Below are positions 3,001 to 7,619 of a stretch of 7,619 nt of DNA, in pieces. The stretch lies in the IMG/VR virus record IMGVR_UViG_2713896778_000017; one strand, written 5' to 3'. Positions within the stretch are counted from its first letter, which is position 1. Each line of letters opens with the position of its first letter. A program made the position numbers. This stretch comes from a virus (taxonomy: Duplodnaviria > Heunggongvirae > Uroviricota > Caudoviricetes).

Positions 3001-6000
3001 GGCATTCTGCTGGTTCCGTGCTGTCGTGGTGGTTCAGCGTTCACCACCGGAGCCGATGGCACATACAGTGACGCGAGTGGTGCCTCGGAGAATTCAACCC
3101 GCTGGGGTGTGGACAAGCCGCTGTATAAGGACCTTATCGGTCGAACAAAAGCAGCACTGAAGAAGAACCCGAAAAATGTGCTGTTTGCCGTGGTGTGGAT
3201 GCAGGGGGAATTTGATTTTGGCGGTACGCCGGTAAATCACGCAGCACAGTTTGGTGCGCTGGTTGATAAATTCCGTGCAGACCTGGCGGATATGGCAGGT
3301 CAGTGCGTCGGTGGCTCTGCTGGCGGNNNNNNNNNNNNNNNNNNNNNNNNNNNNNNNNNNNNNNNNNNNNNNNNNNGATGAGAACGGGGTGAATGTGCCG
3401 ACGAACAAACCGGAAGAAGACCCGGACATTCCGGGTATCGGATATTACGGTTCGAAATGGCGTGACAGCTCAGCCACCTGGACGTCACAGGACAGGGCGA
3501 GCCATTTCAGTTCATGGGCTCGCCGCGGGATTATTTCCGACCGTCTGGCAACGGCGATTTTGCGCCATGCGGGAAGAGTGGCGCTAAACGCGGGGGCATC
3601 ATCGACAGTATCAGAGGTGCGCCCGTCATCGCCTTCCGGTGCAGAAGCCACAGGCGTCACAGCACTGCTCTCTTACCTTGCCAGCGAGTCAGAGGGAAGC
3701 CTGAAAGTACAGGGATGGTCAGCCAGTGGCGGCAGGGCAGAAGTGGTCAGCGATGCGGAGGGAACCGGAGGTAAGGCAGTGAAGCTGACCAAGGAGGCCG
3801 GTAAAAGCAGCTGGGTGCTGGAGTACGCCGCGGGCAACGGTGCGGCTCTGTTACAGAAAGGGGGGCAGATTCGCTGCCGCTTTAAGGTTTCGGGAGCGCT
3901 GGCTGCGAACCAGTATGTTATGGCGTTTTACTGGCCGGTATCTTCACTGCCACAGGGCGTTGCCCTGACCGGAGACGGGGGGAATAACCTGCTGGCAGCG
4001 TTCTACATCCAGACAGATGCAAAAGACCTGAATGTGATGTACCACAATGCGAAAGTGGCGACAAACAACCTGAAACTGGGAACCTTTGGCGCATTTGATA
4101 ACGAATGGCATACGCTGGCTTTCCGCTTTGCCGGGAATAACAGCCTTCAGGTGACGCCGGTTATTGATGGTCAGGATGGCACACCGTTCACGCTGACGCA
4201 GTCACCGGTCAGTGCATTTGCGGCGGATAAACTGCATGTGACAGACATTACCAGGAATGCGACTTACCCGGTGCTGATTGACAGCATTGCGGTGGAAGTG
4301 AACAACGCGGATGCCGCGGCATGATAAAAAAAGCCGCCAGTTGCCTGAGACCTCTGGCGGTGTGAGATTCATGGAGAATCAAGGAAAGATACTACCACTT
4401 TCGTCATCGGCATTTTTAAATGAAAACTGTTTACTTAGTCAACCATAACGGTAAGAAATTATGACATTTATTCATCAGCTGATGCTGTACTTCTGTACGG
4501 TGGTCTGTGTGCTGTATCTCCTTTCGGGTGGGTACAGGGCCATGCGTGACTTCTGGCGCAGACAGATTGACAAAAGGGCCGCTGAGAAAATCAGCGCCAG
4601 TCAGTCAGCCGGANNNNNNNNNNNNNNNNNNNNNNNNNNNNNNNNNNNNNNNNNNNNNNNNNNTGGCACACCGTTCACGCTGACGCAGTCACCGGTCAGT
4701 GCCTTTGCGGCGGATAAACTGCATGTGACAGACATTACCAGAGGTGCGACTTACCCGGTACTGATAGACAGCATTGCGGTGGAAGTGAACAGCACAGACA
4801 CTGCGGCATGATAAAAAAAACGCCAGCGACAGGAATGGACGCTGGCGGTGGTGATACCTATGGAGAAAAAATAAAGGAACGATACTTTCGTACTCTGGTT
4901 TTTTAATGAAAACAGTTCTTATTGTCAACAATAACGGAAAGAAATTATGACATTTCTGAACCAGTTAATGCTGTACTTCTGTACGGTGGTCTGTGTGCTG
5001 TATCTCCTTTCGGGTGGATACCGGGCCATGCGTGACGTCTGGCGCAGACAGATTGACAAAAGGGCCGCTGAGAAAATCAGCGCCAGTCAGTCAGCCGGAA
5101 GCAAACCCGAAGAGCCGCTCATTTAGCGGCAACTTTCTTAATCACATCTTTCGACGAGAAAATCCCATGTCAGAAATTACATCCCTGGTCACTGCTGAAG
5201 CAGTGAAGGAAGTCCTGCGCTCTGAAGAAGTCCGGAGCGCACTGAAACAAAAACTTCGCCATAACCTGGAAGCGCGTCTTGATGCAGAGGTTGATGCCAT
5301 TCTGGATGAGCTGCTTGGTGTACAGGCAGAGCCACCGACTGAAGCGGGAGATACCACCGCAGAGAGCGGTGAAGTTCAGCCTGAATCACCGGTCGCCGAT
5401 GCGACTGAACCTCAACCCGAATCGGTCATGANNNNNNNNNNNNNNNNNNNNNNNNNNNNNNNNNNNNNNNNNNNNNNNNNNAGTCAGTCAGCCGGAAGCA
5501 AACCCGAAGAGCCGCTCATTTAGCGGCAACTTTCTTAATCACACCTTTCGACGAGAAAATCCCATGTCAGAAATTACATCCCTGGTCACTGCAGAGGCAG
5601 TGAAGGAAGTCCTGCGCTCTGAAGAAGTCCTGAGCGCACTGAAACAGAAACTTCGCCATAACCTGGAAGCGCGTCTTGATGCAGAAGTGGATGCCATTCT
5701 GGATGAACTGCTTGGTGTACAGGCAGAGCCACCGACTGAAGCGGGAGATACCACCGCAGAGAGCGCTGAAGTTCAGCCTGAATCACCGGTCGCCGATGCG
5801 ACTGAACCTCAACCCGAATCGGTCATGANNNNNNNNNNNNNNNNNNNNNNNNNNNNNNNNNNNNNNNNNNNNNNNNNNCTTAATCACATCTTTCGACGAG
5901 AAAATCCCATGTCAGAAATTACATCCCTGGTCACTGCTGAGGCAGTGAAGGAAGTCCTGCGCTCTGAAGAAGTCCGGAGTGCACTGAAACAGAAACTCCG

Positions 6001-7619
6001 CCAGAATCTTGAGTCGCGTCTTGATGCAGAAGTGGATGCTATTCTGGATGAACTGCTGGGCGCACCGGCAGTTCCTGAGCCGGAAGGTATCGCGGGTGAG
6101 GGGAGTGCTTCAGATGGCGGTGAACCCACACCTGACAGCGACATGATGATGTAAGCATGCGCAAGGGGCCATCGGTGTGTGCCGGTGGTCTTTATATTGT
6201 TGTGAGCTTCCGGATTGCGGGAGACGGGGTATGTACCAGATGGAAAAAATCACAACAGGTGTGTCATACACCACGTCAGCGGTGGGAACGGGCTACTGGT
6301 TCCTGCAGTTGCTGGACAGGGTTTCCCCGTCTCAGTGGGCGGCAATAGGCGTGCTGGGGAGTCTGCTGTTTGGGCTGCTGACATATCTGACGAACCTGTA
6401 TTTCAAGATTAAAGAAGACCGGCGTAAGGCGGCACGGGGAGAGTAAGCTGATGAGCAGGAAACTCCGCTATGGTTTATCGGCTGCCGTTCTGGCGCTGAT
6501 TGCCGCAGGTGCTTCTGCGCCTGAAATCCTCGACCAGTTTCTGGATGAAAAGGAAGGNNNNNNNNNNNNNNNNNNNNNNNNNNNNNNNNNNNNNNNNNNN
6601 NNNNNNNTGGGTGGAGCGTAATATAAAAGTTCCACTGACCGAGCCACAAAAAGCAGGTATCGCGTCATTTTGCCCCTATAACATTGGCCCCGGTAAGTGT
6701 TTCCCGTCGACGTTTTATAAGCGGCTTAATGCAGGCGATCGCAGGGGAGCGTGTGAGGCGATTCGCTGGTGGATTAAGGACGGTGGCAGAGACTGCCGTA
6801 TCCGTTCAAACAACTGTTACGGTCAGGTATCAAGACGTGACCAGGAGAGTGCGCTGGCATGCTGGGGTATCGACAGGTAAGCAGAATATTTTGCTGAAAA
6901 ATGACGTTGGCCAACGCGGGCAGATAACACGAAATCCTGCGAACTGGCAAAATGTAAGTGAATAAAGTCAACAAGATTGTTTCATGAAGAGGCACCGTAA
7001 TGGTGCCTTTGTCATTTCTGCGCTTCGCACAAGCGTAAATAAACCAAAGAACCTTTCAGGATGAGCCCTGGTGGATAACCGGCAGTGGTCTGGTTAACCC
7101 TCTTTGGGCTGGTTATTCCTGTGCGCAGGGTTCATCACTAAAAGGAAATAACCGATGAATATGATGACCGTGCCGTTTCACGGCGATTCTCTTTATGTGG
7201 TTAACCATAACGGCGAACCATACGTTCCCATGAAACCTGTCGTTGCGGGGATGGGGCTGGCCTGGCAATCACAGTTGGCTAAGTTAAGACAGCGTTTTGC
7301 GTCAACTATAACGGAAATCGTTATGGTTGCTGAGGATGGGAAACAACGCAATATGGTGTCCATGCCACTTCGAAAACTTGCCGGCTGGCTACAAACCATT
7401 AATCCCAACAAAGTAAAACCCGAAATCCGCGATAAGGTCATCCGGTATCAGGAAGAGTGCGACGATGTTCTTTACGAGTACTGGACGAAGGGTTTTGTCG
7501 TTAATCCCCGTAAAATGAGCGTGATGGAAGAACTCAACCAGGCTTGTGCTGACATGAAACGGGATAAAAACATTGCCAGTGTGTTTGCTACCGGGCTGAA
7601 TGAGTGGAAACAGGTTAAA

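Follow-up and report, generated by a model that had tools for sequence, protein, structure and literature searches.

DUF1378 and DUF826 of Shiga-toxin-type prophages: a conserved gene pair that forms a mobile cassette with nanS-p and may act late at the cell envelope

Introduction

The closest described parallel, in layout, to the two small genes treated here is a single gene of phage Mu. Its product, the releasin gp25, is inserted N-out/C-in with about four residues in the periplasm; a basic motif marks the junction of membrane and cytoplasm, and the cytoplasmic domain is anionic. The protein is reported to have raised the release of signal-anchor-release (SAR) endolysins cloned from three other phages, given in the plasmid table as 933W, phage 21, and Bcep22 (PMC9239132). 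The genes in question, DUF1378 and DUF826, occupy positions 4461-6154 of the virus record IMGVR_UViG_2713896778_000017, a stretch of 7,619 nucleotides (nt) that is referred to, at its full length, as the window. The pair sits between the Shiga toxin (Stx) and nanS-p genes on one side and the lysis genes on the other, in the late transcript that controls toxin release.

DUF1378 and DUF826 are known, catalogued families of unknown function in Shiga-toxin-type prophages. In RefSeq/PGAP, for instance in the records of phage Stx2a_WGPS2 and of complete E. coli genomes, the proteins go by the names “DUF1378 family protein” and “DUF826 domain-containing protein,” and the genes are therefore not unannotated, as the initial annotation of this DNA had called them; NCBIfam has no model for either. 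Among the PHROGs, DUF1378 is family 494 and DUF826 is family 311, both listed without a function, and PHROG 8301 is a “long form” of DUF826 with 139 amino acids (aa). The pair of prophage Sp5 in O157 strain Sakai is ECs1210 and ECs1211, directly before the holin gene S (ECs1212), and in VT2-Sakai, orf43 (139 aa) was called too long: it is in the DUF826 frame and overlaps DUF1378. An IS629 element interrupts the Sp5 nanS-p gene (ECs1207) near its 3' end, and ECs1210 and ECs1211 are intact (NC_002695.2, 1270503-1271812). The presence of DUF1378 and DUF826 between nanS-p and S has merely been noted (PMC10462455). We found no functional study of either family in the literature, and one mention of “DUF1378” turned out to be a typographical error for DUF1738. 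What we add here is the relationship of the pair to nanS-p as a cassette and a map of the alternative contexts in which the two genes are found.

Results

The complete small gene of the interval encodes a 59-aa protein that matches Pfam DUF1378 (PF07125) from end to end (residues 1-59 on profile positions 1-59; E = 1.3e-39; 134.6 bits against a cutoff of 25). An acidic protein follows after a gap of 40 nt and belongs to DUF826 (PF05696; cutoff 25), scoring 148.3 bits over the full length of an 81-aa allele and 103.1 bits for a truncated copy of a 90-aa allele. The PF05696 model covers the core and one type of tail, and the 90-aa allele aligns to its positions 1-70 only. The initial annotation had guessed both families correctly, and it was also right about the spacing of about 40 nt and the location between nanS-p and the holin. 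The PF07125 cutoff is passed as well by more distant relatives, in Mu-like phages (131.5 bits) and in phage BUCT709 (62 bits). Sequence identity of the window DUF1378 with proteins of deposited Stx phages reaches 100%; for the window DUF826 allele, identity is 93.8% with the best copies from such phages and 96-98% with database representatives.

The window is not one stretch of a genome but a scaffold. It is made of six segments (1-3326, 3377-4613, 4664-5431, 5482-5828, 5879-6557, and 6608-7619) with exactly 50 N between each two, and the interval 4461-6154 spans four of these contig segments, as follows.

4461..4613, plus strand: DUF1378 gene, 5' fragment (51 codons), cut at the end of segment 2
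4614-4663: 50-N scaffold spacer
4947..5126, plus strand: DUF1378 gene, complete (59 aa; Pfam PF07125)
5167..5431, plus strand: DUF826 gene, long-tail allele B (88 codons; Pfam PF05696, E = 9e-30), cut at the contig end
5432-5481: 50-N scaffold spacer
5482..5523, plus strand: DUF1378 gene, 3' fragment (last 13 codons and stop), at the start of segment 4
5564..5828, plus strand: further copy of the allele-B DUF826 gene (DNA 97% identical to that at 5167..5431), with the same cut end
5829-5878: 50-N scaffold spacer
5909..6154, plus strand: DUF826 gene, allele A, complete (81 aa; Pfam PF05696, E = 6.8e-44), tail ending MMM

The segment ends sit in sequence that is repeated among other segments of the window. 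The end of segment 2 and the start of segment 4 overlap by 15 nt, the same 30-mer closes segments 3 and 4, and direct repeats link 5085-5384 with 5482-5781 (97% identity), 4413-4613 with 4899-5099 (91% DNA identity; repeat family D2), and 4177-4332 with 4664-4819 (92% identity; repeat family D3). Because the ends lie inside shared prophage repeats, it appears that a short-read assembly was broken within paralogous prophages and that the pieces were laid end to end. The best explanation of the interval is that two or three paralogous lambdoid prophages, each having its own DUF1378-DUF826 pair, contributed fragments to it. Segment 4664-5431 is 99.2% identical to phages Stx2a_1447 and Stx2a_WGPS2.

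The true gene content of the interval is one complete DUF1378 gene with two fragments and one complete DUF826 gene accompanied by two copies that contig ends have truncated; the truncated copies both stop at ...ESVM, and their complete relatives of 90 aa end ...ESVMML. Open reading frames (ORFs) of 116, 176, and 196 aa cross the N runs and were rejected as chimeras. The initial annotation thus stands in part: both genes are real and conserved, but the series of “alleles” that it took for neighboring genes is an assembly artefact, the copies being separate scaffolded contigs with 50-N runs between them.

With Pfam scores far over the cutoff and a ratio of nonsynonymous to synonymous substitution rates (dN/dS) of about 0.1, chance matches are excluded, and to judge from the comparison of coding sequences, DUF1378 and DUF826 are real protein-coding genes under purifying selection. 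The pair is almost confined to prophages of Escherichia and Shigella. Among complete E. coli genomes, 1,004 of 5,426 have it, in two copies at the median and seven at most. Among 50,697 phage records, DUF826 is present in 307 and DUF1378 in 309, nearly all of them Stx-type lambdoid phages; nanS-p is present in 351 of the same records and an S21-type holin in 427. Among 5.8 billion proteins, there are 110 clusters of DUF826 and 123 of DUF1378, and all of the named members come from E. coli or Shigella. Many cluster entries are marked “partial,” which shows that assemblies often break at these two genes. A profile search of 1.84 billion representatives returned 55 proteins. A first scan of 185,579 species-representative genomes gave zero matches, and a second scan, made with the short form of DUF826 described below, gave three loci in Pantoea.

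DUF1378 is predicted to be a single-pass membrane protein. The AlphaFold2 model is one continuous helix (residues 2-50) with a disordered end and a mean predicted local distance difference test score (pLDDT) of 77. Hydrophobicity peaks in the 19-residue stretch that begins at residue 3, and residues 26-59 include eight Lys/Arg and five Asp/Glu. A hydrophobic N-terminal stretch with a basic remainder predicts, by the positive-inside rule, an N-out/C-in orientation in which the helix would continue as a basic cytoplasmic segment. Hydropathy, charge, and model all bear out the earlier description of a 59-aa protein with one hydrophobic helix and a basic C-terminal part. The dN/dS values (Nei-Gojobori method, here and below) for the basic helix are 0.09 among lambdoid phages and 0.13 among Mu-like phages, and those for the transmembrane segment are 0.25 and 0.18, respectively. 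A 6-bp hairpin, GCCGCTCATTTAGCGGC, is found at 5114-5130 and again at 5511-5527 and holds the DUF1378 stop codon TAG in its loop; it is weakly terminator-like in a consensus scan, and its fold is not significant (z = -1.7).

DUF826 is very acidic (isoelectric point 4.13, net charge -11) and appears to consist of a helical core and a disordered tail. Its first ~51 residues are nearly invariant, and the AlphaFold2 model has a short helix at residues 10-17 and a long one at 20-49, with a pLDDT of >90 over residues 20-50 and <50 in the tail, where 7 of the 18 acidic residues lie. Alignment and model agree here with the initial annotation, which had described a near-invariant helical first ~50 residues and an acidic, Pro/Glu-rich, disordered tail. 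They do not agree with its view that the tails differ completely and are diversifying. The tails fall into a few classes that permit a gapped alignment, EPQPE-type motifs are common, and the ends are MMM, MML, TML, or TMM. Ten divergent tails are 28-50 residues long, with Asp plus Glu at about 14-28%, Pro at about 15-21%, and no aromatic residue; nine have zero or one Lys or Arg, and the most divergent (locus L121) has four.

The dN/dS values for the DUF826 core are 0.10 among lambdoid phages and 0.13 among Mu-like phages; those for the tail, 0.36 and 0.23, cover alignable stretches only, with unalignable ones excluded, in a sample rich in one tail class. They suggest a tail that is relaxed and indel-prone, in which positive selection is not detectable where it can be aligned. 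Composition and tip are kept even in Mu-like phages, and since the downstream DNA is different there, the constraint on the hydrophobic tip acts at the level of the protein. The tail is better described as a spacer of conserved composition with a conserved tip than as a diversifying region.

The arrangement of genes around the pair is very regular in lambdoid phages. DUF1378 is followed by DUF826 in 80 of 80 lambdoid loci, and in almost all of them the order is nanS-p, DUF1378, DUF826, S21 holin, (YdfR), R, (Ant), Rz; an stx gene within 6 kb is missing from most of the 80. In three further divergent lambdoid lineages, the nanS-p-DUF1378-DUF826 trio is 45-70% identical to the window genes and the next holin is 77-100% identical. 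A divergent trio is also carried by a Mu-like phage inserted in an Stx1 phage, in the order gin, a 680-aa nanS-p homolog (SASA and DUF6645 domains), DUF1378, DUF826, com, and a C5 DNA methylase gene; its DUF826 scores 56.5 bits and has a tail ending TMM. The order gin, nanS-p, DUF1378, DUF826, com is common to 33 Mu-like viral contigs that are substantially divergent among themselves. The long-tailed pair and nanS-p form a three-gene cassette in two unrelated backbones, lambdoid and Mu-like, and this cassette has moved between the two kinds of phage.

Each of the two genes is also found alone. DUF1378 by itself follows S21, R, and Rz/Rz1 in phages BUCT708 and BUCT709 and in 24 viral contigs, and a 4-nt overlap between the Rz stop and the DUF1378 ATG is present in all 24 of these contigs. 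Phage vB_SmeS_BUCT709 (OM816835), recorded as a Stenotrophomonas phage, has an enterobacterial-looking set of S21-type pinholin, SAR endolysin, Rz/Rz1, and DUF1378; the N-terminal region of its SAR endolysin is closely similar to that of the Stx-phage R. A short DUF826 (55-62 aa, without the long tail) lies by itself downstream of Rz in 49 contigs and also in Pantoea prophages, and a remnant of it is present in Salmonella phage Fels-1. Its median gap to Rz is 225 nt, it lies before a small-terminase gene, and the cassettes differ in their types of holin and endolysin; a search of the ~225-nt gap for a small membrane-protein ORF found none. In these short genes, an in-frame upstream ATG would extend the protein by 17-20 residues, among which a W-(L/I)-x-(S/Q) pattern recurs (WLKSLIH, WITQWLFSH, WLFSRK, and WIFSVF; loci L161, 5950-6183; L159; L189; L087, 6950-7177; and L153, 2955-3185). 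The true N terminus of the short DUF826 may be longer than the Pfam model and possibly forms an amphipathic segment. Finally, four contigs have the two genes in swapped order after tail-fiber genes, with the short DUF826 first and DUF1378 after 74 nt.

We compared all-against-all distance matrices from 41 unique loci by Mantel tests. The correlation (rho) is 0.82 between DUF1378 and DUF826, 0.64 between nanS-p and DUF1378, and 0.44 between nanS-p and DUF826. By these distances and the contexts above, DUF1378 and DUF826 co-diverge tightly and stay together in three arrangements, including the swapped order.

The pair lies in the Q-dependent late transcription unit. No sigma-70-like site was found on either strand of 4200-6500, where 1.5 would be expected, and with no promoter-like site of its own, the pair should be made from the late transcript. 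RNA of ECs1211 was detected by microarray in an uninduced culture (PMC2241611); this signal is confounded by paralogues and spontaneous induction. The other features around the pair are as follows.

2464..4324, plus strand: nanS-p (sialate O-acetylesterase; DUF1737, SASA, and DUF6645 domains), the upstream member of the three-gene cassette, interrupted by the N spacer 3327-3376
4664..4811, plus strand: second nanS-p copy, 3' end (C-terminal 48 codons and stop), in repeat family D3
4821..4847, minus strand: hairpin just past the nanS-p stop, with an intrinsic-terminator-like GC stem and then U8; other copy at 4334-4360
6164..6193, plus strand: 11-bp hairpin and then U-rich UUUAUAUUGUUGU, between the DUF826 stop (6154) and the S start (6231); z = -2.5
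6231..6446, plus strand: S, phage-21-type pinholin (71 aa, beginning MYQMEK; Pfam PF04971, E = 7e-33)

The hairpins at the nanS-p stop have z values of -2.8 (4334-4360) and -4.9 (4821-4847). Their run of seven or eight U lies on the minus strand, and read on the plus strand they have an A-run before the stem and no U-run after it. The two copies differ in stem sequence and keep the pairing, and a third version is found in H-19B-type phages. The hairpin at 6164-6193 could be an attenuator at the boundary of cassette and lysis genes, or it could control the choice of the S start codon. In pair-positive phages, S begins MYQMEK (window 6231-6242), with two Met codons and no extra basic residue, and in pair-negative H-19B-type phages it begins MEK only (L123, 5799; L124, 4010), the upstream in-frame ATG being absent in L123. 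The upstream S start seems to come with the pair-carrying DNA.

The surroundings of the interval include three tRNAs, stx2A, stx2B, nanS-p, the pinholin gene S, and the lysozyme gene R. Between stx2B and nanS-p, Rfam identifies the small RNA STnc100 (2052-2257, plus strand; 206.9 bits) and, on the opposite strand, the anti-small RNA AsxR (2260-2312, minus strand; 88.1 bits). The gap between S and R holds variable cargo (L123, 6009-6800; L001, 6073-6417): a YdfR-family gene in many pair-positive prophages and an unrelated 263-aa ORF in Stx1_14744.

Discussion

The predicted features of the two proteins suggest a simple arrangement. DUF1378 would insert in the inner membrane with about three residues outside, and its helix would run on as a basic cytoplasmic segment with a net charge of +3. 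We infer that the acidic, helical, soluble DUF826, with its net charge of -11, would dock on this basic helix and be held at the cytoplasmic face of the membrane. The acidic, Pro/Glu-rich tail of 28-50 residues would be a flexible spacer that offers its short hydrophobic tip (MMM, MML, TML, or TMM) to a partner. The complex would be a dispensable late-phase envelope accessory whose most likely role is the tuning of lysis or release.

To this reading, that of a non-essential late pair in which a membrane protein tethers an acidic protein and tunes lysis or release, we assign a probability of roughly 0.45. Lysis or release is favored as the role because DUF1378 alone is translationally coupled to Rz and because both genes recur at the edges of lysis cassettes; a lysis accessory is possible in particular because the lone relatives of each gene sit at the 3' end of such cassettes. 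A more specific form, in which the two proteins would be an inner-membrane-tethered regulator that tunes lysis by pinholin and SAR endolysin, in the manner of a split releasin or a cytoplasmic antiholin and with the tip as the contact to its target, appears unlikely to us.

Several observations weigh against a role in lysis or release. The pair is dispensable: it is lacking in the H-19B-type Stx1 phages, although these carry a divergent nanS-p and share both the pinholin and the N terminus of the SAR endolysin with the phages that have it; between their nanS-p and S lie ~450 nt of AT-rich DNA in which we found no convincing ORF and no remnant of the pair. The Mu-like trio has no holin nearby, its lysis genes, including a homolog of the gp25 releasin, being ~25 kb away, and these phages already have a SAR endolysin, a spanin, and the releasin homolog of their own. 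The Mantel correlation of DUF826 with the adjacent holin is 0.23, in a comparison limited by a mean holin distance of only 0.02, and the value of 0.82 between DUF1378 and DUF826 could reflect their 40-nt spacing alone. Moreover, cargo is classically inserted before S, after Rz, and after the tail-fiber genes, and adjacency to lysis genes is for that reason weak evidence. The holin was the defining neighbor in the initial annotation, and it is weakened in that place both by the contrast of 0.23 with 0.82 and by the finding that the long-tailed pairs all follow nanS-p, including those of the Mu-like phages.

This constancy is an argument for another explanation, that the pair is a partner of NanS-p and has nothing to do with the lysis proteins. 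It would position, hold, or release this esterase, which lacks a signal peptide, at the inner membrane, for example, by binding of the tail tip to NanS-p. Every long-tailed pair that we found has nanS-p immediately before it, and these pairs represent two unrelated backbones and five or more divergent lineages. Long acidic tails are seen only where nanS-p is present, the relatives without nanS-p being short-tailed, and the distances of both genes correlate with those of nanS-p. The association is looser in the other direction, however. About 44 of the 351 phage records with nanS-p do not have the pair, and their NanS-p has the same three domains as that of pair-positive phages, with merely a more divergent DUF6645. 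Lone DUF1378 and lone DUF826 occur in phages without nanS-p, and the Mu-like phages keep the pair with a nanS-p that lacks DUF1737. Recombinant NanS-p enzymes are reported to be active esterases in a review that does not mention these ORFs (PMC8065619). We consider a NanS-p partner unlikely, at much the same level as the specific lysis regulator above.

A third possibility is that the pair is independent cargo directed against the host or competitors, acting in superinfection exclusion, in anti-defense, or as a DNA mimic, and that it lies at late-operon junctions merely because insertions are tolerated there. The pair is indeed patchy and dispensable, it has occupied all three of the classic cargo sites named above, DUF826 is very acidic, and the pair is present in the 1,004 complete E. 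coli genomes mentioned above, often in several copies. Against this stands the lack of a promoter-like site of its own, with which expression from a repressed prophage is not expected. The DNA-mimic and defense ideas of the initial annotation gained no positive support: no PADLOC defense hidden Markov model matched any of four proteins at E <= 1, a profile search of DUF826 against the PDB gave noise only (E = 0.3-0.45), and Foldseek against the PDB found nothing for DUF826 at E <= 0.001, a search whose power is limited by the small helical hairpin; no structural match to known mimics came to light. In addition, much of the negative charge of DUF826 is in the disordered tail and not on a rigid DNA-like surface, and a membrane-anchored partner would be atypical for a mimic. 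A cargo function of this kind is, in our judgment, quite unlikely.

It is also conceivable that the pair is a two-gene counterpart of the Mu releasin gp25 and helps the SAR endolysin R to leave the membrane. DUF1378 and DUF826 together reproduce the gp25 layout across two polypeptides, and SAR-type endolysins are present in all three contexts of DUF1378 (lambdoid, BUCT709-like, and Mu-like). However, there is no sequence similarity to gp25 (BLASTP gave nothing meaningful, and Pfam scans gave no DUF2730 hit), and a gp25 homolog is already present in the trio-bearing Mu-like phage. The N terminus of R does not covary with the presence of the pair, its basic residues being independent of it (MNAKIRYG with and without the pair), and the idea of a single-chain releasin restored by frameshifting is rejected below. 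We regard a releasin counterpart as improbable.

Least credible, to the point of being negligible, and rejected as a conserved feature, is a single membrane-anchored fusion made by programmed +1 frameshifting at the DUF1378 stop (ATT TAG C, like CUU UGA C of prfB): the DUF826 frame is open from 4993 to its ATG at 5167 in the window, many database entries and PHROG 8301 are “long forms” of 128-141 aa, and many lambdoid alleles have the prfB-like stop context, but the offset is +1 in lambdoid and +2 in Mu-like phages, one lineage has stop codons five codons upstream of the DUF826 ATG, six different stop contexts occur (ATT TAG, CCG TAG, CCT TAA, CCC TGA, CTC TGA, and ATT TAA), and the open stretch is statistically unremarkable in length for what is effectively one lineage.

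The finding that nanS-p and the pair make up one mobile three-gene cassette redirects functional work on these genes. If the pair tunes lysis or the release of NanS-p, toxin output and phage yield in pathogenic E. coli would be affected. A tethered lysis regulator, if that is what the pair is, would influence the timing and the amount of Stx and NanS-p released from induced cells.

Comparison with known systems

As members of their families, the two window proteins show no difference from what is catalogued. DUF1378 has the length, the hydrophobic N-terminal helix, and the prophage setting of PF07125 and PHROG 494, and DUF826 is likewise a member of PF05696 and PHROG 311. Across Pfam, NCBIfam, PHROGs, PADLOC, PDB sequences, and the fold search, no characterized family was matched, which, together with the low dN/dS of both genes, agrees with the expectation in the initial annotation of conserved genes without a well-characterized homolog.

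The lysis proteins offer partial likenesses. We rejected DUF1378 as a homolog or mimic of the S21 pinholin, that is, of its second transmembrane domain and basic tail: hhalign gave a probability of 0.4% over 13 aligned columns, and there was no PF04971 hit. RIII of phage T4, with about 80 residues, and S71 of phage 21 are antiholins. DUF826 is about as large as T4 RIII, is by prediction also helical and cytoplasmic, and is a small late protein encoded beside a holin gene; an acidic protein could conceivably be bound by the basic C-terminal tail of S21. On the other hand, the pair is lacking in the H-19B-type phages, whose pinholin is the same.

The tail of DUF826 recalls the acidic C-terminal tails with a hydrophobic tip in E. 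coli SSB (...DDDIPF) and T7 gp2.5. These tails are, like that of DUF826, disordered and acidic, with a conserved tip and a variable spacer. The resemblance is purely formal, as DUF826 has no oligonucleotide/oligosaccharide-binding (OB) fold and no homology to either protein, and its tip is Met/Leu and not Pro-Phe.

The comparison with Mu gp25 goes furthest. Like gp25, the pair is predicted to have a short periplasmic N terminus, basic residues at the membrane junction, and an acidic cytoplasmic part, and it is encoded among the late genes of phages with SAR endolysins. In the pair, by contrast, anchor and anionic part are encoded by two ORFs, DUF1378 and DUF826. Position differs as well, since the gene for a releasin sits downstream of the endolysin gene, at most a few genes away, whereas the pair in the window and in all lambdoid loci lies upstream of S and R; it is only the lineage with DUF1378 alone that lies downstream of R and Rz.

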